The notes under the pieces were generated by a model. That model saw nothing but the letters and a program-made list of their open reading frames with translations. It did no database searches and was not told the DNA's origin. Shown in pieces: positions 1 to 49,340 of a stretch of DNA of 64,000 nucleotides. The stretch comes from Deltaproteobacteria bacterium HGW-Deltaproteobacteria-4. GTDB taxonomy: Bacteria > Desulfobacterota > Desulfuromonadia > Desulfuromonadales > UBA2197. How positions within the stretch are numbered: position 1 is the stretch's first letter; each line of letters opens with the position of its first letter. The position numbers were made by a program, and so were the translations under genes. The DNA lies in the NCBI GenBank assembly GCA_002841765.1, contig PHAV01000004.1:59075-123074 (forward strand), in the 5' to 3' direction.

Positions 1-693
1 CCGGATTTGCGTGAGCTGCTCTTTGCTATCAAGCAGAAGAACGAGCAGATCATCGACACCGTCAGCCTCGATACGGTCCTCTTCTCCGGTTTCACCGAGG
101 AGAAGGCCAAGGGGGTGGTTGAGTCCTTCGAGCAGTTTATCCTTGAGAACAAGGATGAGATCACCGCACTGCAGGTGCTCTACTCCAAGCCGTATAAACA
201 GCGCTTGAAGTTCGAGGATGTGCGCGAGCTGGCTGAGAAGCTGGTCGCCCAGGTCGAGCAGCTGCGTATCTACTCGACCCATCCGCAAGGGTGGGAGAAG
301 CGGGTGCCGGACGAGCTGTGGGCAGCGTATCAGAAGCTGGAGGCGGGCAAGGTGCGCGGGGCAGCGGCCAATCACATCTTGACCGATCTGGTCTCGCTGG
401 TGCGCTTTGCCATGCATCAGGAGAACGAGCTGGTGCCCTTTCCCGAGAAGGTGCAGGTCAACTTCCGCGCCTGGGTCGAGCAGCAGCAGGTCAGCGGGCG
501 GCGCTTTACCTCCGAACAGCGCAAGTGGCTGGAGATGATTCGCGATCATATTGCGGCGAATCTGCAGATCGAGACGGAGGATTTCGATTATGCGCCCTTT
601 GCGCAGGAGGGTGGGATTGGCAGGGTTTGGCAGCTGTTTGGGGATGATTTGAACGTGATTCTTGATGAATTGAACGAAACATTGGCCGCGTAA
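1..693 (+). CDS. hsdR: Type I restriction enzyme R subunit, C-terminal fragment (5' end is upstream of the window)
   Basis: Frame-1 ORF is open from base 1. The tail ...FTSEQRKWLEMIRDHIAANLQIETEDFDYAPFAQEGGIGRVWQLFG... resembles the EcoEI-type HsdR C-terminal domain. hsdS and hsdM follow on the same strand. Confidence 0.75.
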   Translation, partial: PDLRELLFAIKQKNEQIIDTVSLDTVLFSGFTEEKAKGVVESFEQFILENKDEITALQVLYSKPYKQRLKFEDVRELAEKLVAQVEQLRIYSTHPQGWEKRVPDELWAAYQKLEAGKVRGAAANHILTDLVSLVRFAMHQENELVPFPEKVQVNFRAWVEQQQVSGRRFTSEQRKWLEMIRDHIAANLQIETEDFDYAPFAQEGGIGRVWQLFGDDLNVILDELNETLAA

Positions 694-694
694 C

Positions 695-765
695 GTAGGG
701 GCACGGCGTGCCGTGCCCGATTGCAATTGTCGGTTGATTCAGGGCACGGCACGCCGTGCCCCTAC
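695..765. repeat. REP doublet 1: GTAGGGGCACGGCGTGCCGTGCCC (695-718) and its exact reverse complement (742-765), 23-nt spacer
   Basis: Read directly. Each unit folds as a 9-bp stem GGGCACGGC/GCCGTGCCC with a 2-nt loop. It sits between the hsdR stop and the RAYT start. Confidence 0.9.
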
Positions 766-776
766 GGAGGGGGAAC

Positions 777-1355
777 ATGACGTTTAATCCGAATTTTCAT
801 CGCCGGCGTTCCATCCGCCTTAATGATTACGATTACACCCGCGCCGGCGCGTATTTCGTGACGATTTGTGCGTTCGAACGGGAATGTCTGTTTGGCGAGG
901 TCGTGGACGGGGTGATGCGGTTGAACGTACATGGGAAAATCGCTCAGGAAGAATGGTTGTTGACCGCCGAATTGCGGGATTACGTGGTGTTGGACGAATA
1001 CATCGTGATGCCGAATCATTTTCATGCGGTATTGATGATCGATGATTGTAGGGGCACGGCGTGCCGTGCCCTTGATGATGACGTCGCGGTGGAACAGGGC
1101 ACGGCACGCCGTGCCCTTACGGTGGAATTTTTCGGTCAACCCGTCGCCGGTTCGTTGGCGACCATGATCCGGTCATTCAAATCCGCCGTTAGCAAACGCA
1201 TCAATATTCTGCACAACAATCCCGGCGCGCCGGTCTGGCAGCGTAATTATTACGAACGGGTCATCCGCAACGAACGTGAATTGGACGGTATCCGGCAATA
1301 CATTGCCGATAATCCGGCCAAATGGATCGAAGACGAAAACCACCCGACACGATAA
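777..1355 (+). CDS. REP-associated tyrosine transposase (RAYT, IS200/Y1 HUH superfamily)
   Basis: N-terminus YDYTRAGAYFVTICAFERECLFG, HUH motif in MPNHFHAVL, and Tyr motif WQRNYYERVIRNE. GGAGGGGG lies just upstream of ATG 777; the track's GTG at 756 is probably too early. REP doublets flank the gene. Confidence 0.8.
   Translation: MTFNPNFHRRRSIRLNDYDYTRAGAYFVTICAFERECLFGEVVDGVMRLNVHGKIAQEEWLLTAELRDYVVLDEYIVMPNHFHAVLMIDDCRGTACRALDDDVAVEQGTARRALTVEFFGQPVAGSLATMIRSFKSAVSKRINILHNNPGAPVWQRNYYERVIRNERELDGIRQYIADNPAKWIEDENHPTR
1048..1120. repeat. REP doublet 2, in frame inside the RAYT CDS (units 1048-1071 and 1097-1120)
   Basis: Same 24-nt unit plus inverted copy (tail TTAC). It translates as ...CRGTACRALDDDVAVEQGTARRALT... 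between the HUH and Tyr motifs. Confidence 0.9.
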
Positions 1356-1366
1356 AAACCATCATT

Positions 1367-1459
1367 GTAGGGGCACGGCGTGCCGTGCCCGGTTTTTCCG
1401 GGTTGATTGATCGGTATTATCAGGGCACAAAATCTGGGCACGGCACGCCGTGCCCATAC
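1367..1459. repeat. REP doublet 3 (units 1367-1390 and 1436-1459, 45-nt spacer containing a partial extra copy CAGGGCAC)
   Basis: Read directly. It lies between the RAYT stop and the hsdS start. Confidence 0.9.
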
Positions 1460-1490
1460 GAAATCGTTGGTGGAATGAGGCGTTGAAGGC

Positions 1491-3182
1491 GTGAGCGAAG
1501 AAGAAAAAATAGTTTTTGAACCAGACATTCCAAAGGTGCCAACTGGCTGGGACGTAGCGTCTTTCTTGGAAGTGGTGTCGGTCGCGTCTGACGCAGGTAG
1601 GCGGTTAAAGCAGCGCGATTATCTGGAACAGGGCAAAATCCCCGTTATTGACCAAGGCCAGGATTTCATTGGTGGCTATACCAACGATGATGACTTGGCG
1701 TTTGTCGGGGAACTACCTGTTGTTCTTTTTGGTGACCATACACGTGCAATTAAATTTGTAGATAAACGTTTTGCGGTAGGTGCCGAAGGCATCAAAATAC
1801 TAAAATCGGCAAATTGCTACGACTCAAAATTTTTCTATTATCTTCTGACATCTCTACAAATCCCAAGCCGTGGATACAGCAGACATTTTCAGTTTTTGAG
1901 GAAATTTAGTCTGCCAATTGCGCCTATGGCGCAACAAACCCGCATCGTCGCGGAGATCGAAAAACAATTCTCTCGCCTCGACGAAGCTGTTTCCAACCTC
2001 AAGCGCGTCAAGGCCAACCTCAAGCGCTACAAAGCCGCCGTCCTCAAGGCCGCCGTCGAAGGCAAGATCACCGAAGAATGGCGTAAGCAACATCCTGATG
2101 TTGAACCTGCCGACAAACTGCTGGAGCGGATTCTGTCCGAGAGGCGCAAGGTGGTGGGGAAGTTCAAAGAATCCGTTGAGCTGGATACGATCAATCTTTC
2201 GGAATTGCCGACAGGGTGGGTGTGGGCGAGATATGGGCAAGTAGGACGTCTGAATCTCGGTAGACAGCGTGCCCCCAAGTACCACACGGGCGCGAACATG
2301 CGAAAATATCTAAGGGTTCAAAATGTATTCGAGGATCGGATTGATCTCAGCGACGTGATGGAAATGGATTTTCCTCCGGACGATTTTGAAAAGTACGAGC
2401 TTAAAACTGGCGACTTACTTCTCAATGAAGGACAAAGCCCTGAGTTGTTAGGACGTCCAGCGATTTATCGCGGAGAGTTGCCAGGTGCTTGTTTTACAAA
2501 TACATTAATTCGATTCAGGGCCGTTGAAGGTGTTAGTGTTGAGTTCGCACTTATTGTTAGTCGCCATAATATGCGTGCTGGAAGATTTGTCGATGAAGGT
2601 ACGATTACAACGAATATTGCACATTTAAGTCTTGGTAGGCTTTCGACCGTTGAGTTCCCTCTTCCGCCATATACAGAACAACTTCGAATCGTTGCCGAAG
2701 TAGAACGATGCCTCACAATCGTTGCTAATGCCGAAGCCCAGGTCGACGCCAACCTCCGCCGCGCCGACCGCCTGCGCCAATCGATCCTCAAACAAGCCTT
2801 CTCCGGCCAACTTGTTCACCAGGATCCCAACGACGAACCGGCCAGCGTGCTGCTGGAGCGGATACGGACGAATGCAAATGTAGGGGCACGGCATGCCGTG
2901 CCCTTGTCTCAATCCGAACGTTCAAAGCGGGCACGGCACGCCGTGCCCCTGCGAGAAACCGCACCGGCACCTGCAGTCAGCGACAATTTCACCTGCCTCG
3001 ACGACATCACCGCCGCTCTTTTCGCCGCCATGCACTCCGGCCGCGATTATGCCCGCCCCGACTTGGCCGATCCTCTGGGTCTCTCCACCGGCCAGTGGAA
3101 TGCGGCGATTCAGGAACTGAAGCGGCAAGGGAAGGTGCGGCAGACGGGGGAGAAGCGCGGTGCGCGGTATCAAGTCGTGTAA
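1491..3182 (+). CDS. hsdS: Type I restriction-modification specificity subunit with a C-terminal extension
   Basis: Two variable target-recognition regions are separated by conserved helical spacers (QTRIVAEIEKQFSRLDEAVSNLKRVKANLKRYKAAVLKAA and QLRIVAEVERCLTIVANAEAQVDANLRRADRLRQSILKQAF). GTG start. The ~110-aa tail contains a REP doublet and a possible winged-helix end. Confidence 0.85.
   Translation: MSEEEKIVFEPDIPKVPTGWDVASFLEVVSVASDAGRRLKQRDYLEQGKIPVIDQGQDFIGGYTNDDDLAFVGELPVVLFGDHTRAIKFVDKRFAVGAEGIKILKSANCYDSKFFYYLLTSLQIPSRGYSRHFQFLRKFSLPIAPMAQQTRIVAEIEKQFSRLDEAVSNLKRVKANLKRYKAAVLKAAVEGKITEEWRKQHPDVEPADKLLERILSERRKVVGKFKESVELDTINLSELPTGWVWARYGQVGRLNLGRQRAPKYHTGANMRKYLRVQNVFEDRIDLSDVMEMDFPPDDFEKYELKTGDLLLNEGQSPELLGRPAIYRGELPGACFTNTLIRFRAVEGVSVEFALIVSRHNMRAGRFVDEGTITTNIAHLSLGRLSTVEFPLPPYTEQLRIVAEVERCLTIVANAEAQVDANLRRADRLRQSILKQAFSGQLVHQDPNDEPASVLLERIRTNANVGARHAVPLSQSERSKRARHAVPLRETAPAPAVSDNFTCLDDITAALFAAMHSGRDYARPDLADPLGLSTGQWNAAIQELKRQGKVRQTGEKRGARYQVV
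2880..2952. repeat. REP doublet 4, in frame inside hsdS (units 2880-2903 with loop AT, and 2929-2952)
   Basis: Translates as NVGARHAVPLSQSERSKRARHAVPL. The loop change GT->AT keeps the stem intact. Confidence 0.9.
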
Positions 3183-3313
3183 GATCGGAATGCATCTGTT
3201 ATCCGGAATTTCCGTATAACTTTCTCTGTTGTTGCATTTTTTGCACGAACTGGAACTACCGATAAATTCACGGTAGTTCAGTAATGACGTAACAGTCAAA
3301 GGAACGTTGTAAT

Positions 3314-4309
3314 ATGGACTCCGAGAAAGGCGATATCGTCATTTATCAGGCAGAAACCGGCGCAACAGCGCTCGAGGTTCATCTTGATCACGATACTGTT
3401 TGGCTGACTCAAAAGCAATTGGCCGATCTTTTTGACGTCAAGGTCCCCGCGATTTCCAAGCATGTGCGTAACATTGTCGTTTCCGGAGAACTTGCTGCCG
3501 AGGCAACTGTTTCCAAAATGGAAAGAGTTCGTCGCGAAGGCGAGCGCTCGGTGAGCAGAACCGAAGTTGCGTACAATCTGGACATGATCATTTCGATCGG
3601 TTATCGGGTGAATTCTGACAAAGCGACCCGGTTTCGCATCTGGGCAACCCAGGTTCTTAAAGATCATCTGGTCAAGGGCTACACCATCCATGAGCAGCGA
3701 CTGCACGATGAAACCGCCAAACTCCACGATCTGCGCCAGACTGTCGATCTCCTCGCCCGTACCCTGATGACGCAGGAGCTGGTCACCGAGACCGGCAAGG
3801 ATGTGCTGCGGGTGATCAACGATTACGCCTACGCCCTCGCCACCCTCGACCGTTACGATCACGGCACCCTGAGTATCGAGGGGACGACCGGCCAGACGCT
3901 GCGCGTCATCGACTACGCAGAGGGAATCTCTCTGGTCAAGGCGATGAAGGGGGAGTTCGACGGGCTCTTTGGCATCGAGAAGGATCAGGGATTCAAGAGT
4001 GCCCTCGGCACCATCTACCAGACCTTCGACGGTAAAGAACTTTACCCCAGCGTCGAGGAGAAGGGGGCCAACCTCCTTTACTTCGTCGTCAAGAACCACG
4101 CTTTCAGCGACGGCAACAAGCGCATCGCCGCTGCCCTCTTTATCTACTTTCTCGCCGGCAACGCCATCCTCTATCGACCTGACGGCTCCAAGCGCCTCGC
4201 CGACAATGCCCTGGTGGCGCTGACGCTCCTCATCGCCGAGAGCCGTCCCGACGAGAAAGAGACCATCGTTAAAGTCATTGTCAATCTCATCAACCGGAGC
4301 AACGATTAA
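3314..4309 (+). CDS. RhuM-like N-terminal domain fused to a Fic/Doc domain
   Basis: N-terminus IVIYQAETGATALEVHLDHDTVWLTQKQLADLF...IGYRVNSDKATRFRIWATQVLKDHLVKGY is RhuM-like. The C-terminal motif HAFSDGNKRIAAAL is Fic/Doc-like (HxFxDGNKR). Confidence 0.8.
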   Translation: MDSEKGDIVIYQAETGATALEVHLDHDTVWLTQKQLADLFDVKVPAISKHVRNIVVSGELAAEATVSKMERVRREGERSVSRTEVAYNLDMIISIGYRVNSDKATRFRIWATQVLKDHLVKGYTIHEQRLHDETAKLHDLRQTVDLLARTLMTQELVTETGKDVLRVINDYAYALATLDRYDHGTLSIEGTTGQTLRVIDYAEGISLVKAMKGEFDGLFGIEKDQGFKSALGTIYQTFDGKELYPSVEEKGANLLYFVVKNHAFSDGNKRIAAALFIYFLAGNAILYRPDGSKRLADNALVALTLLIAESRPDEKETIVKVIVNLINRSND

Positions 4310-4311
4310 AC

Positions 4312-5799
4312 ATGACCCCCGCCGCAATTGTCAGCAAACTTTGGAACTTCTGCAACGTCCTGCGCGACGACGGCATGAGCTACGGCGACTACGTCGAACA
4401 GCTCACCTATCTCCTCTTCCTCAAGATGGCCGATGAGCGCACCAAAGCGCCCTACAACCATCCCAGCACCGTCCCGCTGAAATGGGCCTGGCCGACGCTG
4501 GTGAAGAAGGACGGCGATGAGCTCTTCGACCACTACCGCCACACCCTGGAAAACCTCGGCAACGAGAAGGGCCTGCTCGGGCTGATCTTCAATAAGTCGC
4601 AGAACAAGTTTCAGGACCCGGCCAAGCTACGCCGTCTGATCGTCGATCTCATCGACAAGGAGAACTGGTCGGTGATGAGCGCCGATGTCAAGGGGGACGC
4701 CTACGAAGGGCTGCTGGAGAAGAATGCCCAGGACACCAAGAGCGGTGCCGGGCAGTACTTTACCCCACGGCCGCTGATCCAGGCGATCGTCGACGTCATT
4801 GCCCCGAAGCCGGGGGAGACAATCTGCGACCCGGCCTGCGGCACTGGCGGCTTTCTCCTTGCCGCCCACGATGCCATCGTTGCCGGTCATCCGCACATGA
4901 CCAAGGACGAGCTCAAGAATCTCAAAGAAGGGACCTTTAAGGGTTGGGAGCTGGTGCAGAGCACGGCGCGCCTGTGCGCCATGAACCTGATGCTGCACGG
5001 CATCGGCGGACTCGATACCGACCTGCCGCTGCTGGTATCCGATTCGCTCGCCGCCGATCCGGGGACGAGGTTCGACATCATCCTCACCAATCCCCCCTTC
5101 GGCAAGAAGAGCAGCACCACCATCGTCGCCGAAGACGGCAAGATCAACCGCGAGACCGAGACCATCGAGCGCGACGACTTCTGGGCCACCACCTCGAACA
5201 AGCAGCTCAACTTCATGCAGCACGTAAAGACTTTGCTCAAGCAGCACGGCCGCGCCGCCGTGGTCGTCCCCGACAACGTGCTCTTCGAAGGCGGGGCAGG
5301 AGAGACCATCCGCCGCAAGCTGCTGCATGAGTGCGACGTCCACACCCTGCTGCGCCTGCCGACTGGCCTCTTCTATGCCCAAGGAGTAAAGGCGAACGTC
5401 CTCTTCTTCACCCGCAAACCGGCCAGCGAGACGCCGTGGACGCGCAAGCTGTGGATCTACGACCTGCGCACCAACCAGCATTACACCCTCAAGACCAATC
5501 CGCTGCAGCGCAAAGACCTCGACGAGTTCGTCCAGCTCTGCACCGCGCCGACTCGCACCGCCACCTGGAGCGCCGAGACCCCCGACGGCCGCTGGCGCTG
5601 TTACGACTACGCCGATCTCGTCGTCCGCGATAAAGCCAGTCTCGATCTCTTCTGGCTCAAGGACGATTCGCTGGAAGATTCGGACAACCTGCCGGCACCG
5701 GGCATCCTGGCGCTGGAGATCGTTGAGGATCTCCAGGCGGCGCTGGAGCAGTTCCGGCTGATTGCCGAAGATTTGGGGGAAGAGGTGGAGGAGGTCTGA
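4312..5799 (+). CDS. hsdM: Type I R-M N6-adenine DNA methyltransferase subunit
   Basis: HsdM N-terminal helix (KLWNFCNVLRDDGMSYGDYVEQLTYLLFLKMADER), AdoMet motif DPACGTGGFL and catalytic NPPFGKK. Confidence 0.92.
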   Translation: MTPAAIVSKLWNFCNVLRDDGMSYGDYVEQLTYLLFLKMADERTKAPYNHPSTVPLKWAWPTLVKKDGDELFDHYRHTLENLGNEKGLLGLIFNKSQNKFQDPAKLRRLIVDLIDKENWSVMSADVKGDAYEGLLEKNAQDTKSGAGQYFTPRPLIQAIVDVIAPKPGETICDPACGTGGFLLAAHDAIVAGHPHMTKDELKNLKEGTFKGWELVQSTARLCAMNLMLHGIGGLDTDLPLLVSDSLAADPGTRFDIILTNPPFGKKSSTTIVAEDGKINRETETIERDDFWATTSNKQLNFMQHVKTLLKQHGRAAVVVPDNVLFEGGAGETIRRKLLHECDVHTLLRLPTGLFYAQGVKANVLFFTRKPASETPWTRKLWIYDLRTNQHYTLKTNPLQRKDLDEFVQLCTAPTRTATWSAETPDGRWRCYDYADLVVRDKASLDLFWLKDDSLEDSDNLPAPGILALEIVEDLQAALEQFRLIAEDLGEEVEEV

Positions 5800-7768: not shown

Positions 7769-8184
7769 GAGTATCCACAGTCCATCCGCAGCATTGACGA
7801 TGACAGGCCTGCGCTTGCCACTGTGAACAAGTCGGTTATACTTTCGGTCAGCGGTCGTCAAAGGGGCGGCTGATTGACAGGTTGGCAAGACAGCTTTATA
7901 CGGAGAGGTATTCGAGTCAAGACGTTTGATGAGCCACTGTCCCCCTTCCGGTCTCGCCGTTGTCATGTATTCCCACCGACTGGCTGGGAACTTAGTCGAT
8001 AAATCATTAAAAAATTTTCTTTATCGTAAAATCAAAGGGTTATCAAATATTTTAAGGCGTAATTTAAATTATTAAAAAAACATTGAAAAACATACAGTTA
8101 TCTTCTGTGTAATAAATAGGCAAAATCCTATTCCCTCCATTTATCCGGACTTGTCACCCCTTAGTTGTATCTTTTCCCGCAATG

Positions 8185-8207
8185 TTATCCACAGGGGATG
8201 TGGATAG
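8185..8207. promoter_or_regulatory. Perfect 8-bp inverted repeat TATCCACA-N5-TGTGGATA containing a consensus DnaA box (TTATCCACA) and a near-consensus inverted box (CTATCCACA)
   Basis: Read directly. It lies at the edge of a ~300-bp AT-rich non-coding island (about 7980-8280) with further TTATC cores. Confidence 0.35.
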
Positions 8208-8312
8208 AGTGCTAGAAATTGTGCTGGTCAGGATGTAACTGATTTTGTATATTGCTCCCCTGCGCCCGGCCTGAATTTATTGCCGCCGTTTATTTCGATG
8301 AAGGGAAACAGG

Positions 8313-8609
8313 ATGAAACACAATCAGCGATTGCAACGCGCCATTATTGAAGTTGTCGAAAATCAAATTGAAGCCAATGACCCGCCGGAAATCAAGCAAA
8401 CTTTAGCTCGTCTGGTTTCGGAAGGGTTTTCAATCCAAGCCGGGAAAGAGCTGATCGGTAATGTTGTTGTTGTCGAAGTTTTCGAGGTGCTCAAGGAGGG
8501 CAGACCTTTTGATCTTGATAGATATGTCGCCGCCCTCAACCGGCTTCCGGAACTGCCGCCGCTGCCAACAGCTGAATTGCCTACTGCACCTGTCACCTCG
8601 TCAAATTAA
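8313..8609 (+). CDS. Hypothetical small protein with Pro-rich tail
   Basis: ORF MKHNQRLQRAIIEVVENQIEANDPPEIKQTLARLVSEGF...LPELPPLPTAELPTAP. Start uncertain (8298 or 8313). Confidence 0.5.
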   Translation: MKHNQRLQRAIIEVVENQIEANDPPEIKQTLARLVSEGFSIQAGKELIGNVVVVEVFEVLKEGRPFDLDRYVAALNRLPELPPLPTAELPTAPVTSSN

Positions 8610-8626
8610 GGGTCAATGCCCCCTGG

Positions 8627-9382
8627 TTAGATGTTTAAAGGAGGATTGAGCTCCTGTTTGTCATTTAAGATGTTGAGCAGGAGGGGATGGAAGAAGGCGC
8701 TGGATTGCACTTTCTGCGTCCAGGTCTTCGCCATTCCATTGTTGATCTGGGCTGCAAGGTTGGTGGTGTAGGCAAGATAAACGAGCAAGGGGAAGTTGCC
8801 GCTGATCGCCCCTCCGGGGAGCAGGGTTTCCATCTGTTTGAGCACCCGTGTTTCGGCGTGCTGTGCGGCATTTTGTGTGCTTGCAACATAGTGCACGGGA
8901 TAGGCCACCACCGAACGCTCCAGAGATTCCAGATAAAGACGCTTCTCGAGCGGATCGAGGGTCGAAAAATCGACACAGCACCATTCAGCCGGTTTGGTGG
9001 AGAGGAGGGCACGACAGGCAAGGGGGCGCTGCGCATAGATACTGCAACAACCGCTGCCGTCAAGAAAAGGGCAGGGGCCGATAGCCGAGCGCTGCTTGCG
9101 CAGGACACTGAGAAAGTCGCCGGCACCGGACAGGCTCTCCCGCTGTCGCAAAACATATTCCTGCAGCTTGTACGCTTGCATCGCATCGAGTTCCTCGGCA
9201 ACGAGTAGCGCTTCCACCAGGGTCGACTGCACAAAGAGAGTGCAACAGTTCGAGCATTGCGCCGCACAGAAAATACGTCTTCCCTTTGTAGTGTACTCTT
9301 TCTGCCATTCCGCTATGAGCCCGTCGAGATCAGCCGCCTCGTTTTTTACCGTTTCCTTTAAGTTTTCCCACTGTTCTTTCAA
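8627..9382 (-). CDS. YkgJ-family cysteine-cluster (CxxCxxCC-type) putative Fe-S/Zn protein
   Basis: CAAQCSNCCTLFV cluster near the N-terminus plus a second Cys group (GPCPFLDGSGCCSIY). Confidence 0.7.
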   Translation of the reverse strand: MKEQWENLKETVKNEAADLDGLIAEWQKEYTTKGRRIFCAAQCSNCCTLFVQSTLVEALLVAEELDAMQAYKLQEYVLRQRESLSGAGDFLSVLRKQRSAIGPCPFLDGSGCCSIYAQRPLACRALLSTKPAEWCCVDFSTLDPLEKRLYLESLERSVVAYPVHYVASTQNAAQHAETRVLKQMETLLPGGAISGNFPLLVYLAYTTNLAAQINNGMAKTWTQKVQSSAFFHPLLLNILNDKQELNPPLNI

Positions 9383-10956
9383 CGTAAGACTCCAATAATA
9401 TTATTTTTTTCTAGAAGATTAAGCAAAATCACCTGGATGTTGTCGTGGCACTCCCTGCCGGTATCGATGGTGATGGCATTCTCTTTGGCCGTGGGACGAA
9501 CGAAGCTGCTCAGCTGCTGCTGCAAAATTTCCGGTCGGCCGTCCGAGGAATCAGTCCCCTCCTCCCAGCGTTGTGTCAGGCGTTGGCGGGTCAGTTCTTC
9601 GTCACAATGAAGATAAAGCAGGACAAAAGGAAGACCGGCGGCGGATGCGAGTTGACGGAAGCGCTGGCGTTCTTCTTGATCGCCAAAGGCGGCATCGACA
9701 ATCACGCTCTGTCCGGTGGCAATTTCGCTGCCAGCTAGTTTAAGCAACTGCTCATAGGTCTGGCGCGAACGGACCGGAGCATACAGTCCCTCACCAAAGG
9801 CCGCGGGGTGATGCTGGCGGGGATCGAGTCCGAACAACTCCTTGCGGACGATGTCAGAGCGCAGATGCGTCCCTCTGACCGCCAGGGACAAGGCACGACT
9901 GAGCGTGGTCTTGCCGACCCCCATCGTGCCGCAGGTAATGAAGAGGGTGGGAGGAACCAGATAACCGAGGGCGAGGTCAAAGTATTCTTTGGCGCGTTGT
10001 CTTGCCGCCATCTGCTCTTTTTCCGGCAGTTCCGGATCATCGACGAGGAAGCTGTTTACCTTGCCGCGCACAAAAGCCCGATAGATTTCGTAAAAACGCA
10101 GCAGGGCCGGGTCGATCTCCTCACCCAGAAGGGAGCTCCAGGTCTGTTCGATGATCCTGGCGAGATCCTGCCTCCCCCGTTTGTCGAGATCCATCAGCAA
10201 AAAGGCAAGGTCGGCAAGGATATCACCGACACGAAAGCGGCGGTTGAATTCGATGCAATCGTAGATGCAGATCGGATAGGTGAGGCAGATATGGTCGGCG
10301 TGCAGATCGCCATGCCCGTCGCGTACCCGGCCGGCGGCTTCCCGCTCCTGCATCTGGCGTCGCAGATTATCGATGGCCAGATGCATGCGCTCCCGGAGCA
10401 GGTCGAGAGCCTCCGATCGAATCGTCACACCGGCGTACTGTTCAGTCTGGTTAAAGTTCTCTTCCCAGTTGCGTTGCACCACCGTTGCCACATCCTCAGC
10501 ATCTCCCCGACAGATCTGACAGTCCTGATGCATCTGCGCCAGAGAAGTGCCGAGCCGCACCACTTCCTCCGGCAGACTCGGATCGTTGCGTTCGACGAGG
10601 CGGTCGAGCATCCGCTCTTCCGGGAGGCGGCTCATGACCACGGCGTATTCGATAATCTCCCCCTCCTGGCCGTCGATCAAGAGCTCGCCGTTATGGAGGC
10701 GGATCGGCACGACGCCAAGGTAGGTATCCGGCGCAAAACGGCGATTGAGCAGGATTTCCTGTTGACAAAAATGGTGGCGCCGCTCAAGGGTGCTAAAGTC
10801 GAGAAAGCCGAGATTGACCGGTTTTTTGATCTTGTAGACCTTTTGATCGGTCAGATAAACACAGGAAGCATGGGTTTCGCGAAGTTCGATCGTGCCGGGC
10901 GGGGAGGGGTAGACATGCGGATCAAGCAGGCGCTGATGCAGTTCTTCCGGGGTCAT
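9379..10956 (-). CDS. Bifunctional aminoglycoside-phosphotransferase-like kinase / P-loop ATP-binding protein
   Basis: N-terminal APH/kinase-like region (HGDLHADHI catalytic-loop-like, DCIEFNRRFRVGDILADLAFL). C-terminal P-loop CGTMGVGKTT. 4-nt overlap with the downstream ykgJ-like gene. Confidence 0.8.
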   Translation of the reverse strand: MTPEELHQRLLDPHVYPSPPGTIELRETHASCVYLTDQKVYKIKKPVNLGFLDFSTLERRHHFCQQEILLNRRFAPDTYLGVVPIRLHNGELLIDGQEGEIIEYAVVMSRLPEERMLDRLVERNDPSLPEEVVRLGTSLAQMHQDCQICRGDAEDVATVVQRNWEENFNQTEQYAGVTIRSEALDLLRERMHLAIDNLRRQMQEREAAGRVRDGHGDLHADHICLTYPICIYDCIEFNRRFRVGDILADLAFLLMDLDKRGRQDLARIIEQTWSSLLGEEIDPALLRFYEIYRAFVRGKVNSFLVDDPELPEKEQMAARQRAKEYFDLALGYLVPPTLFITCGTMGVGKTTLSRALSLAVRGTHLRSDIVRKELFGLDPRQHHPAAFGEGLYAPVRSRQTYEQLLKLAGSEIATGQSVIVDAAFGDQEERQRFRQLASAAGLPFVLLYLHCDEELTRQRLTQRWEEGTDSSDGRPEILQQQLSSFVRPTAKENAITIDTGRECHDNIQVILLNLLEKNNIIGVLR

Positions 10957-11070
10957 GGCTACCTTCTGGAGTCAGATTTGATGCAATCGTTCCAGTTTAG
11001 CACGGCTTTATTCTCTGTAAAGGTCTTTTGTGCTGACTTCATTTCACTGTTAGTGAGTTGGCTACGTGAC

Positions 11071-11105
11071 AGGGGCGGCTCCCTGTGGCTGCCCGCTTTG
11101 TCCTT
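11071..11105 (+). repeat. Second-family REP-like hairpin unit, copy A (AGGGGCGGCTCCCTGTGGCTGCCCGCTTTGTCCTT)
   Basis: A direct repeat of copy B lies 296 nt downstream. The hairpin GGGCGGCT/GGCTGCCC is imperfect. Confidence 0.55.
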
Positions 11106-11239
11106 CCGATTTCAACCGAACAAGTTCCGGGGGTTGCGCCCCCAACGACGCCCTACTTCTTTTCCTTGCCGGAAAGAAGTAGGCAAGAAAAGGCACCCCA
11201 ATCGTCTGGCCCTCTACGCGGGTTCCCTGCGTCCGGCAG

Positions 11240-11303
11240 ACGTTTGGCGGGCGGACAAAAACTCGCTGCGCTCAGACATTTGTCCGCCGTTATCGCCAAA
11301 CGT
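11240..11303. repeat. Long imperfect hairpin: ACGTTTGGCGGGCGGACAAA ... TTTGTCCGCC(GTTAT)CGCCAAACGT
   Basis: 20-bp arms with a 5-nt bulge and 19-nt loop, read directly. Non-coding context. Confidence 0.6.
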
Positions 11304-11367
11304 CCACCGCGCTCCGGCGGCGGCGAAAGGGGGGAAGACCAATCCCGAAATCCTATAGATTATTGAT

Positions 11368-11401
11368 AGGGGCGGCCCTTGTGGCCGCCCGTTTTGGTCT
11401 T
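11368..11401 (+). repeat. Second-family REP-like hairpin unit, copy B (AGGGGCGGCCCTTGTGGCCGCCCGTTTTGGTCTT)
   Basis: Perfect 8-bp stem GGGCGGCC/GGCCGCCC with a 5-nt loop. Same orientation as copy A. Confidence 0.6.
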
Positions 11402-11784
11402 AAGCTCACCTCCTTGCTTAAGGAGGACCCAAACAACGGGACTAAGGGGCCGGGGGTGGTAGGTTTCGCCGTCTACTGGGGATCTCGGCTGACAGCCTCA
11501 ATCACCGGCCACAAGCCAGCATCCCGCCGGGATGCGACAGCAGAACCCGGAGGGTTCACAGCAATTAGCCGGTGGTCGAGCGAAGCGATACCACCGGGTC
11601 ACGTGGACGCCGCCGCGCCGATAACATTGGTCACCGGGCGCGATGGTTTTTCCAATGTTGACGCAATGTTGCATTGACATGTCGGGTGTCGGCAGTGTAA
11701 ATAGTCAGGACATTTTTCATGCGCCTGGTTTAAGGCGGTTAAAGTGAGGGATTTGAGATGGGTAGAGGGATAATGGATCGATAA

Positions 11785-11826
11785 TGCCGCCTGGTCAGCA
11801 ATGTGCTGATGGATGGCATTTTTTTT
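11785..11826 (+). terminator. Candidate Rho-independent terminator or attenuator 170 nt upstream of the GGDEF gene
   Basis: TGCCGCCTGGTCAGCA-ATG-TGCTGATGGATGGCA followed by T8. The stem is imperfect. Confidence 0.45.
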
Positions 11827-11995
11827 GAGCGATGATTTGGGGATTTCCGTTTGTCAAGTTTGACCCCTTAGACTCATTTCAGCAGGACCCGGTCGCAACC
11901 TTCTGGAGTCGTGGCTCAGATATTGTGAAGTAATATAGTCAGGTTGGCGTAGTATGTTTGGTCGGGAATACTCTGGAGTCGGAAGGTAAGAGAAC

Positions 11996-32963: not shown

Positions 32964-32971
32964 CTTTCTGA

Positions 32972-35809
32972 CTACTTAATCCTGACTCTGAATTTGACGT
33001 TAAAGGCCGGGTGATTCGTGCCATCTGATCCGTTGAAGGTTCCGCTTAAGGGAATCTTGATATCGGTAACAGACGGGTCGCACTGGTTACTGTCCGGCGC
33101 GGTATTGCTCTTGAGGTAGATATCTGCACCGTTATTTCCGGAGAAGGCAAGGTTGTCCGTTGTGCTGGCCAGACTGGTAAAGGTGTAACTGAGGCCGCTC
33201 GGAATGGGACCATCGGTAAAGAGGACCGGTCCGGAACCGGCCCCATTGATATCACCGACAAAAAGTTCGGTGTTGGCCGGAATCGGGTCGGTAATGACGG
33301 TGCTGTTGTTGTCAACGGCTCCGGGGCCGGTATTGCTGACCGAAATAGTGTATGTCATAAAAGCGCCGGGAATCGCTTTGGGCAAGCTTGTACCGTTGAT
33401 CGGGTCGGAAAAGGTCTGCGCTGATTTAATCACCAGGAGACTCGGTAACGGACTGATCACGGAGGCGCTTTTTATGCCGTAATCGCTGACCGTCCCTTCC
33501 GTCCCCTCGAAAGCATGAACCAGTGCGGTCCAGTTGCCAGAAGTGTTGAGCGTATAGGGGCCATATTCGAAGGTTTTAGTTGCCGGGGTGGTCAGGGCGC
33601 TGAGTTCTGTCATCGGTCTGGCTGTGACCGCGACCGTGCCGTCAGGTTTGGTGAGCGTGAGGGTTGGTAGTGTAGTCGGCTGACTGGCGTTGATGTCATA
33701 ACTGCCGAAGGGATCGCTGATTGTGCTGCGGATGTAGACAATTTTCCCTGGAGCGGCAGAGGTGACAACGCTCCCGGCCGGGTAGGCAGCGTCGTAGTAG
33801 GTAATGGAGTCGACATTGATGACGGTGCTGGCCGGGAGTTCGACCCGCGATCTCCCCCAGGTGGGGTTGGTGATGTAAACGCGCATACTATCAGTCACTG
33901 CGGCGGCAGTGTTGGTGACAGTTAACTCCCACCGGTTGCCTGCGGCACAGGTGACTGGTGTTGTCCAGGGTGGTGTCGGCGTTGACAAATCGAATCGTAC
34001 CATATCCTGATTGATGGTTAAATTGATCGTCTTGGTGTTGGTAAGGGTCGTCCCTCCCGAGGAACATTGCAGATCAACCTTGACGGTGCGGTTGCCGGGG
34101 TTGCTGTTGTACCGCAGGAGCAGATAGACCGGAACTGTGCTGTTGACCTTCGGATCGATAGTGATAGCCGCGGCGGCACCCGGATCCATCGTCCAGCGCT
34201 GCAAACCAGAGAGGGCGATTGTTGCATAGGATGTTGAGCTGTTGGGGGTGCGTGAGAGTTTATGCGCCGGTGTTGAAGTGCTATCGTACAGATAGAGCAG
34301 CTTGTTGCCGCTCCCTGTGACCGTCGCCGCCTGAACGGTGAGTGTCGGCGCTGCTGGTGTCCCCCCGAGGCCGCCGGGATTAGTGACGGTGGCGCTGTTG
34401 GCGATCGGTGTCCCTGCCGGGGTGGCGGCGGCAACGGTGACTTCGAAGACGATGGTTACGCTCCCTGACGCCGGCACAGTAATGCCGGTGAGATTAAGGT
34501 AGCCGGTGCCATTGGTCCCGCCGCCGGTTGTCGAGCTATTGCCGGCTCCGGCGGGGATACTTATAACCGTAAAGTTGTTGACATTGGCGGGGATATTGTC
34601 AGTAACAGAGACGCCGGTGGCAGTGTACCCCGAGTTCTCCTTGAGAGTGATGGTATAGCGCAGGACATCGCCGGGTTGAAGATCATCACCGTTCTTGTCA
34701 AGGACCCCCTTGGTCGAAGTCGAGAGGTCGGGAAAGTTTGCACCGATAATAGTATTGGTGTCACTGGCGCTGGTGCTTTTGTCGGTGACGGAGACAGAGG
34801 CGGTATTGGTGACGGTTCTCGTTCCTGAAGGGGCGGGACTGGCGGCCAGGGTCGCGTTAATGGCGAAAGTCACGCTGCTGTTAACCGGCATGGCAGGAAT
34901 GGTGATTCCGGCCCCCTGCATCGCGGCCACGGTCGTGGCCGGACAGGTCGTCCCGATCGCGCTGCATGAGACGGTGCTGACGGTGAGGTTAGGGGCAACC
35001 GGGTCGGTGAAGACGACATTGCTCAGAGCTGCACCGGTGGTGTTGGTAATTACGACTGTGTAGGTGGTGGCGGCGCCAGGGCTAAGCGCCGTCTTACCGT
35101 CGCTTTTACTGATGGAGGGGAGGACTACGACGTTGATCGAACCGTATTCGACATTAGTGGCGAGCAAGGTGTTCGGCGAGTTGCATTTAGAAGTCGTCCC
35201 GGGGAGGGCATCGGCAATCGAAGTGCAATTGGCTCTTTTTTGATGATCCCAGCTGACGACAAAGGGAATAAAGAGTTTGCCATTACTCAGGTCGACGGCT
35301 TGGCAAAGGACCGGGACATCGTAGAGTCGCACGATGCCCGAGCCTGTGCCGCCGTTAATAGTAGGATTGCCGTCGCCGCAGGTATCGGTGCTGCCGTACT
35401 GTTCGATATCGGTAAAGGGGCTAATAGTTGGCAGGATGCCGACAGTGCAGCTATCAGCGCCGCCACTGGCAGGGAGGAGCTTCGGCGTCTTGCCGTCCCG
35501 GGAAAGGAAGATGCCGACATCATAACGATCAGGCTGGGCAAAATTAACCGTAATATCGAGGTTGGCGGTGAAGGAGCTACCACCGACACAAGCGGTGGGG
35601 GTTCCCGGCGCAACAGAGATGCCGGTAATAGACACATCAGCGGCCGTGCACCCCAGATTTGAGTTGTAGCGCGCCGCCACACATTCGTTGTCGCCGTAGG
35701 CCATTACTGCCGACGCCAAGGTAAGTATGAAGGCACATGTTAAAGCGACAGCGATCAGTGCAGAGCGCAAGAGTTGTCGCCGGTGTAGACCATTATTTGC
35801 AAAGATCAT
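32972..35809 (-). CDS. Secreted 945-aa DUF11-repeat protein (protein J), paralog of the 1389-aa protein but lacking the lectin-like head
   Basis: Signal peptide with an RR motif (NNGLHRRQLLRSALIAVALTCAFILTLASAVMA). DUF11-type repeats (e.g. LQPGDVLRYTITLKENSGYTATGVSVTDNIPANV). The C-terminal ~230 aa are near-identical to protein E and end in FNVKFRVRIK. Confidence 0.85.
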   Translation of the reverse strand: MIFANNGLHRRQLLRSALIAVALTCAFILTLASAVMAYGDNECVAARYNSNLGCTAADVSITGISVAPGTPTACVGGSSFTANLDITVNFAQPDRYDVGIFLSRDGKTPKLLPASGGADSCTVGILPTISPFTDIEQYGSTDTCGDGNPTINGGTGSGIVRLYDVPVLCQAVDLSNGKLFIPFVVSWDHQKRANCTSIADALPGTTSKCNSPNTLLATNVEYGSINVVVLPSISKSDGKTALSPGAATTYTVVITNTTGAALSNVVFTDPVAPNLTVSTVSCSAIGTTCPATTVAAMQGAGITIPAMPVNSSVTFAINATLAASPAPSGTRTVTNTASVSVTDKSTSASDTNTIIGANFPDLSTSTKGVLDKNGDDLQPGDVLRYTITLKENSGYTATGVSVTDNIPANVNNFTVISIPAGAGNSSTTGGGTNGTGYLNLTGITVPASGSVTIVFEVTVAAATPAGTPIANSATVTNPGGLGGTPAAPTLTVQAATVTGSGNKLLYLYDSTSTPAHKLSRTPNSSTSYATIALSGLQRWTMDPGAAAAITIDPKVNSTVPVYLLLRYNSNPGNRTVKVDLQCSSGGTTLTNTKTINLTINQDMVRFDLSTPTPPWTTPVTCAAGNRWELTVTNTAAAVTDSMRVYITNPTWGRSRVELPASTVINVDSITYYDAAYPAGSVVTSAAPGKIVYIRSTISDPFGSYDINASQPTTLPTLTLTKPDGTVAVTARPMTELSALTTPATKTFEYGPYTLNTSGNWTALVHAFEGTEGTVSDYGIKSASVISPLPSLLVIKSAQTFSDPINGTSLPKAIPGAFMTYTISVSNTGPGAVDNNSTVITDPIPANTELFVGDINGAGSGPVLFTDGPIPSGLSYTFTSLASTTDNLAFSGNNGADIYLKSNTAPDSNQCDPSVTDIKIPLSGTFNGSDGTNHPAFNVKFRVRIK

Positions 35810-44822: not shown

Positions 44823-44907
44823 GGTGTACCTCCCTTTCTTTTCTTGTGTTGAACCGGGTTTGAAAAGTTGTGAGCGAATAAAAAATCCATATCTTGTTCC
44901 TTTCTGA

Positions 44908-47900
44908 TTATTTGATCCTGACTCTGAATTTGACGTTGAATGAGGGGTGATTGGTTCCATTTGAACCATTAAAGATGCCGATTAAGGGGATTTTTATATT
45001 GGTAACTGTCGAGTCGCAGCCGTTAATGTCCGGTGCTGTATTGCTTTTGTCGTAATTCGTGCCGCCATTGCCGGAAAAGGCGAGATTGTCAGTGGTGCTG
45101 GCCAGACTGGTAAAGGTGTAGCTGAGGCCGCTCGCAGTCGTGCCATTGTTAAAGAGGACAGGACCGATCGATGGCCCGGCACCGTCGAAGTCGTCGACAA
45201 AGAGTTCGGTGTCGGCCGGAATCGAATCGGTAATGACGGTGGTGTTGCTGTCAACTGCGCCGGCGCCAAAGTTGGTGACCTGGATGGTGTAGTCGACAAA
45301 AGCGCCGGGAATTGCTTTGGCTCCTGCTCCTTCACCATTAACCGGGTCGGAGAAGACCTGTGATGATTTGACCACCAGCAGGTTCGGCATCGGCACGATG
45401 ACGCTCAAGGCTTGCAGTGCGTAATCACTGACCGTCCCCTCGGTCCCCTCATTGGCAACGACGCGGGCGGTCCAATTTCCGGCCGGGCCGCCGGCCGGGA
45501 TGGTGTAGGGGCCGTACTGGTAGATCTTGGTGGCGGCGTTTGAATCGTAGGCTACGCTCATGGCGACCGGAGCAGGCGAACCAATCCGGGTAACACCGGA
45601 GGGGTCAGTCAAAGTCAGGGTGGCGCCGGTGATATCGTAACTGCCGAAGGGGTCACTGACCGTGGCGCGGATATAGACCGTGCTTCCGACAGTCAGCGAG
45701 GTAACGCTGCTGCCGCCAGGGTAGAGGGCAGTATGGAAGGTGATGTCGCTGTTATTGATGTTGATGACGTTTTTCGAGTTGATAGTGACCATCGACGAGT
45801 TTCCGGTCGACGGCGCTGGGTAGACGTTGATGTTGCGTCCAGTTCCGGTGCCTCCCTGGGTGTTGGTGATGTCCATGATCAGGGCGTTGCCGCTGGCACA
45901 GGTGTAATCAGTTGACGATACAGGAGTGAGGGTAAAGTCGTAGCGGACGGCGCCTCCGACGACTAAGTCGGCGCTTAGTGAGGTTGTGGCGACGCTCGTT
46001 CCGCCGCACGTCAGCGTAATCGGGATGGTATAGGTACGGTTGCTGTTGGTCGAGAGCCAGAGGGTCACCGGAATATTGCCGTTGCTGATCGTCACATCCG
46101 ACTGCAGGGCCGGGTTGAGCGTCCAACTCTGGGTAATGCTGCCGCGGGGGATCGCGACAATAGAGCCGGCTGCGGTCGGCATCGGTGTGCGCGAGAGTTT
46201 ATAGCTGGGGGTTGAGCTGTTGTTATAGAAGTAGAGGGGTTTGTTCCCGGAACCCGGTAGCGAGCCGCTATTGACGATCAGTGCTGGCGCATCGGGATTG
46301 GCGCCGATGCCGCCGGGGACGGTGACCGTGGCACTGTTGTCGATGACCGTCCCCGTCGCGGTGCCGAGGGGGATGGTGACATCGTAAATGAGCGTGACGC
46401 TGCCGCTGGCCGGGACGGTGATGTTGGTGATATACAGGTAGCCGGTACCATTACCGCCGGTACCGAAGGGGGTCGAGAGGTTGGTGGCGCCGCCCGGCAG
46501 GGGGAGAATGACACTAAAACCGCTAGTGTTGTTGGGGATGGTGTCGGTCACCGACACGTTGCTGGCGCCAACTCCGGCAGTTTCAGTCAGGGTGATAGTG
46601 TAGCGGATGACATCACCGGCCAGGGGGTCGCCGCCGCTGGTGCGGTTAATCCAGTTTTTCGTTGAGGTCGAGAGGTTAGGAATAGCGACAGTTGTGGTGT
46701 CGCTGACGTCACGGGTCTGGCTCGCCAGGCCGGTGGTATATGTGGCGCGGGTAACGACAGTGTCAATCGTTCCGTTCGTGGCGCTGCCCGGAATCGTCTC
46801 ACGCACCAGGATGCAGATATTTTCGTTGGCTTCGAGATTGACCGCCGCAGTGATATCCGATTCGCCGGCATCGAAGCTGCCGTTGCAGTTGTTGTCGCGC
46901 ACATAGGTAATCGCCGGCCAACCCCCCTGGGTACGGCTGTTTGTGGTAAACGTGACATTGCCGCGGGCTGTGGCGGTGAAGATATGCGCGTAGTAGACCG
47001 GTGTTGATGAGTTGCCGACTGCGCTTAAAGGGGTCGGTGTGAAGTTGATAGTGATCGGCGGCGGTATATCGCCGAAAATGAGATTGAAGTAGTCGGTATA
47101 GAGGGTATAGGCAAACTGCTGATATTCACCGGCAATGGTGTAAGTACTGCCGGTCGTGCCGGAGTTATAGCTGACCGAGGTGTAGCCGGCGAGATTGTTT
47201 TCATAGATACGCAGGGTGGCGCTGGCGGTGTTGGTGAAGAGGGCGAAGTTGCCGCCGGCATCGGTGGTGACGGTATCGTAGGTGGTGGTTCCGGTGCTAT
47301 TGCGCAGCGTCAACGTCACCCCGGCGATGCCGGTCTCGGCGGCATTGAGAATACCGTCATAAGCGGTGGTGATACTGCCGTTGAAGCCGTCATCCTTGAT
47401 CACTTTGCCGCTGATGCGACTGCCGTTGTAAAGGAAGAAGTTCCGGTTGGTCAGATTGGCGCCGCTGGCGACAACTCCGCTCAGGGTATAGTTGATGGGG
47501 GTGACATAGATCCAGTTGGCGCTCGGAAAGCTCGGGTCGTAGACATTGACGGTGTTGGTGGAGCTGAGAATGACGACATAATCACCGTAGCTCGGGACTC
47601 CGGAAAAAGTGTAAGTGCCGAGAGTAGTGCTGACCTGCACAGGGGCGACGACAGTGGTACTCAGGTCGCTGGCGCGAAAAAGTTTGGCATAATAGGTCTG
47701 GCCAGTGACCTGGGATTCGCCGCCGTCGCGCACGCCGTTGTGGGCGATGCCGCCGCTAAAACCGTTGTCATTGTACACCGTGCCGCTGATGCTGATCGTG
47801 CCGCTGCTGACGGTGGTGCTGACACTGGCGCTGTTGTCGGCCGGCAGATAGTCAATGATGCCGGCCGGCGGCGTCAGGGTGGCGGTGTTGACCAGGACCG

Positions 47901-49244: not shown

Positions 49245-49340
49245 CACTTTGTCTTCGGTAGCCCGGCTGTCCGTTCATGAAACGGATCCTGAGCTTTGCG
49301 TCGCCGGATTACTCCGGTTTTGCTTTTATCGGAATAAGTG
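49245..49340 (-). promoter_or_regulatory. GEMM-I class cyclic-dinucleotide riboswitch aptamer (c-di-GMP-I family; A at the Vc2 G20-equivalent position suggests the Geobacter-type cGAMP-sensing GEMM-Ib variant)
   Basis: Minus strand reads CACUUAUUCCGAUAAAAGCAAAACCGGAGUAAUCCGGCGACGCAAAGCUCAGGAUCCGUUUCAUGAACGGACAGCCGGGCUACCGAAGACAAAGUG. It has GCAAAA, a CCGGA-GUAA(GNRA)-UCCGG hairpin, the ACGCAAAGC core, a second hairpin (UCCGUU/AACGGA), CAGCCGGGCUACC, and closing pairing CACUU/AAGUG. I aligned it by eye to the V. cholerae Vc2 aptamer. Confidence 0.75.

Follow-up and report, generated by a model that had tools for sequence, protein, structure and literature searches.

What is a transposase gene, with short hairpin repeats both around and inside it, doing in the middle of an operon for type I restriction-modification (R-M)? 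The question is raised by a stretch of 64,000 nucleotides from contig PHAV01000004.1 of Deltaproteobacteria bacterium HGW-Deltaproteobacteria-4, all of which we refer to as the window, and in which a gene for a REP-associated tyrosine transposase (RAYT) lies between hsdR and hsdS amid eight copies of a repetitive extragenic palindromic (REP) sequence. The answer that we favour, with good confidence, is that the locus is a 'REPtron', in which an intact RAYT of subclass 2.4 and GTAG-tagged hairpin repeats are carried as cargo in the hsdR-hsdS slot of an EcoEI-like type I R-M operon. The repeats, which are paired as inverted doublets (REPINs), and the RAYT gene are placed as follows:

695..765, REPIN 1: REP 695-718 (+) and REP 742-765 (-), 23-nt spacer; folding energy -40.5 kcal/mol, z=-11.5
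777..1355, + strand, tnpA_REP/RAYT gene: 192 aa, subclass 2.4 (RAYT group 4), assigned by motifs, profile match and fold match
1048..1120, REPIN 2: REP 1048-1071 (+) and REP 1097-1120 (-), 25-nt spacer, in frame in the RAYT gene; -35.0 kcal/mol
1367..1459, REPIN 3: REP 1367-1390 (+) and REP 1436-1459 (-), 45-nt spacer, filling the gap from RAYT to hsdS; -36.8 kcal/mol
2880..2952, REPIN 4: REP 2880-2903 (+) and REP 2929-2952 (-), 25-nt spacer, in frame in hsdS; -29.9 kcal/mol

When the window was searched for the 24-mer REP GTAGGGGCACGGCGTGCCGTGCCC, allowing up to three mismatches and with 100 shuffles as the control, exactly eight matches were obtained (695+, 742-, 1048+, 1097-, 1367+, 1436-, 2880+ and 2929-). 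Four of these are exact and four have a single mismatch, against an expectation of zero from the shuffles. The 20-nt core GGGCACGGCNNGCCGTGCCC, again with up to three mismatches, identified the same eight sites in the 64 kb and no further site anywhere in the window. The four doublets fall within 2.26 kb, and two of them are intergenic and flank the RAYT gene while the other two are in frame inside genes (RAYT and hsdS). The repeats vary in two places only: the central dinucleotide, which is GT/AC (AT at 2884), and a 4-nt tag, which is seen as GTAG, GTAA, GTAT or GCAG. An earlier reading of this DNA, made from the letters alone (hereafter the sequence-only reading), had described eight REPs in four inverted doublets with this spacing and with variation confined to loop and tail, and the mismatch search confirms all of it.

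Folded with DNA parameters, each REPIN forms one long hairpin, with z-scores ranging from -11.5 to -7.2 relative to shuffled sequences, none of which folded equally well. The same reading gave the single REP a 9-bp stem with a 2-nt loop, which is correct as a formal palindrome. It does not stand as the likely fold, because the terminator scan reports the REP at 1371-1390 with 8 pairs and a 4-nt loop, and this form is the likelier to be sterically preferred. The stems begin GGGC, giving three G-C pairs at the stem foot, with the canonical GT[AG]G tag. No other perfect hairpin with a GT[AG]G tag is present in the window, and Rfam returned no family matching the REPs. The locus is 100% identical in an independent Logan assembly and the gene is present on a second NCBI assembly, showing that the REP cluster is not an assembly artefact.

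The RAYT gene itself is intact and its product is modelled with the HuH/Y1 fold. The protein is 100% identical to an NCBI entry from Deltaproteobacteria bacterium HGW-Deltaproteobacteria-4 annotated 'transposase', and has thousands of homologues, which where aligned are invariant at M78-P79-N80-H81-x-H83, W154-Q155 and Y175-I-x-x-N179-P180. The HuH motif, MPNHFHA, fits the signature NH[IFV]H, and H81 and H83 are invariant in 29 homologues. The HFH that the sequence-only reading picked out belongs to this motif, but the 'YYE' that it took for the tyrosine motif lies elsewhere, in WQRNYYERVIR. In the alignment this segment is paired with WQPRFWEHAIR of 4ER8, by which E. coli TnpA_REP recognises GTAG (W94-Q95...E100-H101...R104). 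In the homologue profile the catalytic tyrosine is Y175, in QYIADNP, aligned with DYIYINP of 4ER8. This motif, YIADNP, matches YIxNNP at five of six positions, with D for N, and close homologues have YIVNNP or YIINNP.

A search of the PDB with the single sequence gave no match and a homologue profile was required, which identified 4ER8 (E. coli TnpA_REP) at E=6e-5 with the HuH, WQ..E.R and tyrosine motifs all aligned. The AlphaFold model has a mean pLDDT of 77.7 and is confident except at the N-terminus and across residues 93-120, the REP-encoded loop, where pLDDT is below 50 and the chain is predicted to be disordered. Foldseek comparison of the model with the PDB again gave 4ER8 as the best match (E=2.5e-6, TM 0.62, probability 1.00), followed by the IS200/IS605 transposases ISDra2, IS608 and IS200. 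The protein ends nine residues past the conserved W183 and is without the conserved C-terminal extension. By these alignments the catalytic and GTAG-reading residues are all present, and the protein is a predicted enzyme. The description of the transposase as an intact RAYT, flanked by and containing inverted GTAG-tagged REPs, is upheld by motifs, profile and fold alike.

Set against the classified RAYTs, the protein falls by signature in subclass 2.4 (Quentin 2018), which is RAYT group 4 (Bertels 2017, PMC5581495). The signature of this subclass comprises NH[IFV]H, WQ, YIxNNP, a median length of 194 aa and a variable beta3-alphaC insertion (Table 1, PMC6006769). Its hallmark is the presence of in-frame REPs inside tnpA_REP between the HuH and tyrosine motifs, and it further has conserved GTAG-recognition residues, 'double-foot' REPs, flanking REPs that carry a GT[AG]G tag and begin their stem with three G-C pairs, and a patchy distribution over many phyla (PMC6006769). 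The RAYT of the window agrees with the subclass in every sequence criterion (NHFH, WQ, YIADNP, 192 aa, in-frame REPs, and flanking REPs within +/-1000 nt), and on this comparison the locus contributes a further member to a RAYT subclass that is already described. It differs from the description in three respects. Inside the gene it has a complete inverted pair of REPs, 25 nt apart, where many relatives have a single double-foot REP; its tyrosine motif has D where the signature has N; and the paper makes no mention of a location in type I R-M operons or of an in-frame doublet in a neighbouring hsdS.

Read in frame, REPIN 2 encodes RAYT residues 91-115, CRGTACRALDDDVAVEQGTARRALT (CRGTACRAL...GTARRALT), between the HuH strand (beta3) and helix alphaC. 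The sequence-only reading had this doublet invading the gene, which is misleading, since the doublet is in frame and at the position that is the hallmark of the subclass. A GT[AG]G hairpin is found inside the RAYT gene, at the same place, in 25 of the 33 homologue loci examined. The sequence of this internal hairpin differs from lineage to lineage, examples being GGGCACGGC, GGGCACGTTG (Meiothermus), GGGCGACCGG and GGGCGGTTCG, and in many cases, though not in all, it matches the flanking REPs. In one homologue (P0047, locus L211 5001-5795) the beta3-alphaC loop extends to about 70 residues through tandem repetition of 'TLGTAPT' beside the REP-encoded peptide. REPINs 2 and 4 each encode 25 aa but are read in different frames, indicating that the DNA, and not the peptide, is the conserved entity. 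In-frame REP dimers encoding 20-30 aa have been described in functional genes, often of DNA metabolism (Di Nocera 2013, PMC3733652), and both these and the Rickettsia palindromic elements (Ogata 2000) are likewise tolerated as peptides in working proteins. Here, however, the hosts are the transposase itself and its operon neighbour hsdS, and relatives carry other REP classes at the hsdS site.

The genes around the RAYT gene make up the remainder of the operon:

7..693, + strand, 3' end of hsdR (EcoEI_R_C domain): Pfam EcoEI_R_C, E=6e-39; the gene runs past the left edge of the window
1491..3182, + strand, hsdS: 563 aa; Pfam Methylase_S, PADLOC Specificity_I
3314..4309, + strand, RhuM/Fic-family cargo gene: Pfam Virulence_RhuM and Fic; PADLOC PDC-S23, E=2.6e-131
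4312..5799, + strand, hsdM: 495 aa; Pfam N6_Mtase (E=1.4e-68) and HsdM_N

The hsd genes and the cargo are all intact and all on the + strand, and the full HsdR, of 948 aa, is found on the same contig in L216. REPIN 1 begins 1 nt past the hsdR stop codon and leaves 11 nt to the RAYT ATG, a stretch that includes a Shine-Dalgarno sequence, GGAGG, at 768-772; REPIN 3 begins 11 nt after the RAYT stop codon. When the hsdR-hsdS junction was compared with related loci, homology between the aligned junctions was seen to run to the hsdR stop codon, where the cargo starts. In one relative (L121, with ~90% DNA identity to the window in the hsdR 3' end and hsdM, or 93-95% at the protein level) homology ends exactly at that stop; a 23S_rRNA_IVP gene occupies the slot of RAYT, and GmrSD occupies that of the RhuM/Fic gene. 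A second relative, L122, has MazG and an SLFN-like helicase in place of RAYT, and two others, L128 and L210, have a RAYT gene in the same slot. The HsdM of the window is 94-95% identical in amino acid sequence to those of L128, L121 and L122. Judged from these junctions, the hsdR-hsdS slot of this EcoEI-like type I R-M operon is variable, and the RAYT gene is one among several alternative cargoes that occupy it. The second slot, between hsdS and hsdM (3314-4309), contains GmrSD or a DEAD-box helicase in related loci, so that the operon family has two variable cargo slots.

Unrelated genes within R-M loci are familiar as restriction-linked open reading frames (ORFs), such as the rlo genes of Campylobacter type I R-M systems and prrC of the EcoprrI locus. 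The RAYT gene resembles these in being an unrelated gene, co-directional between hsd genes, with alternative cargo in the same slot; a search of the literature on restriction-linked ORFs found no RAYT listed among them.

These comparisons bear on the possibility of a recent invasion, in which an active REP/RAYT would have split a contiguous hsdR-hsdS operon and begun to damage the RAYT gene. The eight REPs are so alike that they could be recent. In addition, the RAYT of L128 is 71% identical to that of the window, compared with 94% for HsdM and 89% for the HsdR C-terminus; since RAYT is more diverged than its neighbours, the cassette may have been exchanged by recombination between the conserved hsd flanks. 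On the other hand, no ORF is broken and the two doublets inside genes keep the reading frame, an internal REP at a fixed position is conserved in the subclass, and the relatives always have a gene in the slot (RAYT, IVP, or MazG with the helicase). Among the relatives of the R-M family examined, no hsdR-hsdS junction free of RAYT and of any other gene was found. We therefore regard a recent invasion as very improbable. RAYT does lie between hsdR and hsdS, as the sequence-only reading had stated, but the operon is not split in the way it supposed, since the hsd genes are intact and co-directional and the content of the slot varies in relatives. Two further details of the RAYT-bearing relatives were observed. 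In L210 the TAG of the GTAG of the first REP is the hsdR stop codon, and upstream of RAYT in both L210 (~4850-5000) and L128 (5900-5990) a REP with its 27-nt spacer is tandemly duplicated, giving the order REP-spacer-REP-spacer-REP.

The fourth doublet lies in frame inside hsdS, a point missed by the sequence-only reading. Besides its two target-recognition domains and conserved regions, HsdS has a linker, followed by a C-terminal tail of ~75 aa (aa 489-563) that is itself conserved. Since the PADLOC Specificity_I model PDLC03127 spans residues 134-553, tail included, the tail belongs to the usual make-up of one HsdS subfamily. REPIN 4 encodes, in frame, aa 464-488, VGARHAVPLSQSERSKRARHAVPLR (VGARHAVPL...RARHAVPLR), in the variable linker between ...LLERIR and the tail, and the same tail is preceded by a REP-free linker rich in Lys, Arg and Pro in L128, P0125 and P0133. 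REP doublets are present in the hsdS linker of four members and belong to four classes, namely GGGCACGGC in the window (2880-2952), GGGCGATTC in P0121/L122 (L122 4560-4632, also 73 bp), a degenerate GGGCGAGTC type in P0122/L121 (L121 ~8200-8260) and a form encoding VGAQFIAP...RAQSIAPL in P0124. The DNA flanking these doublets is 74-76% identical between members. The presence of different REP classes at one site, in loci with 75-90% identical flanks, would imply that one REP has been exchanged for another at a fixed place in the linker, in preference to point mutation. Between classes, 4 of the 9 arm positions are different, and the changes extend together to all of the arms. Orthologous RAYT genes have been reported to be flanked, at corresponding positions, by REPs of different classes (Nunvar 2013); in hsdS the class difference falls within coding sequence. 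Other R-M loci (L127, with an internal REP only, and L203, with another pattern) do not support a general mobile cassette in which the hsdS core is enclosed by REPINs 3 and 4, and this idea was rejected.

REP sequences are usually taken to be specific to a species or genus. A scan of a genome collection for the exact core GGGCACGGCNNGCCGTGCCC nevertheless gave, among the matches listed, at least 140 occurrences in at least 120 loci, of which 115 of the 140 occurrences have a GT[AG]G/C[TC]AC tag (25 of these being double-foot). Within the same set of matches, a RAYT gene was present at 3 of the 120 core-bearing loci (the other 117 being without one within the 8-kb stretch) and just one of the 140 hairpins lay inside a RAYT gene; the idea that most copies elsewhere represent the RAYT-internal copy was rejected on these counts. 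At least 70 different assemblies are represented among 80 matches listed. The hosts include metagenome-assembled genomes of Acidobacteriota, Chloroflexota, Planctomycetota, Nitrospirales, Omnitrophota and Deinococcus, together with one Methanosarcinales bin (L064) in which contamination of the bin is possible. Since the tagged core lies far from RAYT genes in these other genomes, this type of REP does spread within genomes.

How might such a system work? The mechanism that we propose for the REPtron is inferred from E. coli TnpA_REP and the IS200/IS605 paradigm. RAYT would bind the folded REP on single-stranded DNA (ssDNA), reading the 5' GTAG, and would cut and rejoin the strand through a 5'-phosphotyrosine intermediate. 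Strand transfer of this kind could seed or exchange REPs, preferentially near RAYT's own gene, and those landing in coding DNA would be expected to persist only where the frame is kept and the site is a loop or a linker. The two doublets between genes probably have a further role as hairpins in RNA or DNA, with REPIN 3 serving as a putative two-way terminator that would insulate RAYT from hsdS.

The model systems correspond to the window only in part. E. coli TnpA_REP (subclass 2.2; 4ER8; Ton-Hoang 2012, Messing 2012) resembles the RAYT described here in its HuH/Y1 fold, its aligned motifs and the GTAG-tagged REPs that flank its gene, although sequence identity is ~15%. The E. coli REPs, unlike those of the window, number in the hundreds and form longer stems with bulges, and none lies inside the gene, which has no R-M context. 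The REPIN-RAYT system of P. fluorescens (group 3; Bertels & Rainey 2011) likewise has inverted REP doublets that form one long hairpin and adjoin a RAYT gene, but Pseudomonas REPINs number in the hundreds and have conserved spacers, whereas the window has four local doublets with unrelated spacers.

Several observations weigh against this explanation. Beyond the 2.26-kb cluster, the ~71 kb of contig covered (the rest of the 64-kb window and 9.2 kb upstream) contains no further REP copy, and over this span nothing bears out the claim of the sequence-only reading that an active, dispersed family has its home here. Flanking 16-mers are also rare in group 4, at ~14 per replicon (PMC5581495). The REP arms are near-identical across the four doublets while the spacers are mostly unrelated, the exception being an 18-nt stretch (D6) at the junction of spacer and right REP that REPINs 1 and 3 have in common at 78% identity. 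A REPIN population in the sense of Bertels & Rainey consists of whole-unit copies, spacer included, and the four doublets are not such copies. Unlike spacers between near-identical arms fit poorly with simple recent copying of one whole REPIN, and this pattern is more suggestive of events that involve single REPs, or of arms that have been homogenised. The RAYT also scores below curated cut-offs, with 20.9 against 23 bits for Pfam Y1_Tnp and 52.3 against 80 for NCBIfam REP_Tyr_transpos, the latter matching the C-terminal half of the protein only (E=5e-14). The in-frame insertion probably causes these low scores by splitting the domain, and the two models evidently cover subclass 2.4 poorly; many homologues do have a precomputed PF01797 match. 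Any present mobility, and any dispersed REP population in the source genome, are accordingly hypothetical.

Some of the same observations would be expected if the REPs were simply fixed local structures, that is, mRNA hairpins, terminators or insulators tuning expression of hsdR, RAYT and hsdS, together with tolerated linkers, and if the RAYT were domesticated or idle. The lack of copies elsewhere in ~71 kb, the unlike spacers and the small number of flanking 16-mers per replicon in group 4 all fit this alternative, as does the proximity of REPIN 1 to the RAYT ribosome-binding site. REPIN 3 in particular looks like a terminator on both strands between RAYT and hsdS, since a T-run is present inward of each of its REPs (GGTTTTTCC on +, GATTTTGTG on -) and the terminator scan reported both 1371-1390 (+, tail GGTTTTTCCG) and 1456-1435 (-, tail GATTTTGTGC). 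The total number of terminator-like sites is nevertheless not above chance (10 found compared with 7.7 expected). Moreover, the catalytic and GTAG-reading residues are all intact, and the same tagged hairpin lies far from RAYT genes in many other genomes among the matches listed. The arms, with 0-1 mismatch in 24 while the spacers drift, suggest ongoing homogenisation, or selection by a sequence-specific factor. Taken together, we consider local structure a possible but rather doubtful account of the repeats, and retain the REPtron as the explanation of the locus.

We also considered whether the association with R-M is peculiar to this window. Metagenomic RAYT loci were sampled as the best 80 of 577 matches, a sample that may be biased because the query RAYT is itself R-M embedded, and were compared with 120 control loci carrying the same hairpin core (878 kb in total). 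Type I hsd genes were present on the RAYT strand at 12 of the 80 loci, at 11 of them directly adjacent, and at none of the 120 controls (Fisher p=1e-5). Where at least 1.5 kb was available on both sides, 6 of 21 loci were R-M embedded and a further 2 adjoined Eco57I-type methylases, and among the loci reached via proteins, 5 of 8 (the window included) lay in R-M operons. The loci with a RAYT gene in an R-M operon, as judged by gene neighbourhood, are:

L127, L128, L130, L131, L138, L144, L156, L158
L168, L178, L203, L206, L207, L210, L212, and the window at 1-5799

Three orders of embedding are seen, R-RAYT-S, S-RAYT-R and M-RAYT-S, with hsdM-hsdS-RAYT-hsdR in Meiothermus ruber and hsdM-RAYT-hsdS-hsdR in Desulfoferrobacter suflitae. 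The start and stop codons of RAYT and hsdS overlap as GTGA or ATGA in L127, L131, L144, L156 and L212, and by 1 nt, as TAATG, in L203. The embedded members are spread across the RAYT tree. RAYTs are not confined to such operons, and most of the RAYT loci that can be evaluated are in housekeeping neighbourhoods. A search of the literature for a link between RAYTs and type I R-M found nothing relevant. In this sample, subclass 2.4 RAYTs thus recur in type I R-M operons, co-directionally and far more often than by chance, a lead that may be new. In L203, double-foot REPs of two classes were observed at 2166-2193, in hsdM (792-2447), and at 9386-9413, in hsdR (8162-11305); they are in frame in both genes and both ORFs are intact. 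Two further ideas about the association were set aside. The gene orders are uninformative as to whether RAYT is drawn specifically to hsdS, because hsdS is the middle hsd gene in every order seen and any internal slot adjoins it. Carriage by phages or plasmids was rejected, since RAYT relatives turned up in no more than 2 viral contigs and 4 plasmid records, the latter non-mobilizable.

A tentative extension of this result is that a sizeable share of subclass 2.4 RAYTs is R-M embedded, cotranscribed and often translationally coupled, across several phyla and operon architectures, with the operon as either vehicle and shelter or functional partner. The differing REP classes at the hsdS linker site accord with this extension. 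As vehicle and shelter, the operon would carry along a selfish RAYT that could not be deleted without losing an addictive R-M system. As partner, it might profit from exchange, mediated by REP and RAYT, of a cassette of cargo plus hsdS, or from the HUH nuclease as an ssDNA arm of restriction. For the window itself, the corresponding explanation is that the RAYT is a functional R-M accessory (an HUH nuclease directed in defence at ssDNA hairpins, or a driver of cassette exchange around hsdS) or a selfish gene protected from deletion by its operon. The excess of same-strand hsd genes over the controls, the proportions among well-flanked and protein-derived loci, the three gene orders, the overlaps with hsdS and the dispersal of embedded RAYTs over the tree all speak for it, and the other cargo of the two slots is of defence type (RhuM/Fic PDC-S23, GmrSD, SLFN-like helicase, MazG). 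Mobile-element genes do, however, tend to be enriched around defence genes in general, PADLOC gave no match for the RAYT, and the housekeeping neighbourhoods and possible sampling bias described above count in the same direction. We judge this explanation unlikely for the present locus, and the REPtron again remains the one that we prefer.

Elsewhere in the window, the sequence-only reading had suggested a second REP class at 11071 and 11368. The two sites prove to be one perfect hairpin (11370-11390) and one imperfect relative (~11073-11094), ~300 nt apart and neither of them GTAG-tagged. A scan for such GC hairpins gave one match in the window and at least one in 7 of 100 shuffles, a count close to chance, and the suggestion is not sustained. 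The pair sits in a 1-kb divergent intergenic region (10957-11995), and Rfam gave no match in the hairpin region at 10.8-11.7 kb. The sole Rfam match in the window is a c-di-GMP-I riboswitch at 49254-49334 (-) (RF01051, 59.6 bits, E=3.9e-9). Direct repeats of ~0.8 kb at 32964-33739 and 44900-45678, 11.9 kb apart and 79-83% identical, are probably paralogous genes.

The locus shows REP doublets in frame in both a transposase and its neighbour gene, with neither gene broken. If the embedding in R-M operons is borne out by a wider census, it would provide an ecological niche for the poorly understood RAYTs of group 4/subclass 2.4, a route for their patchy spread across phyla, and a new gene class among 'restriction-linked' cargo. 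Were the operon a vehicle and shelter, this could also account for the occurrence of the same REP hairpin across phyla.

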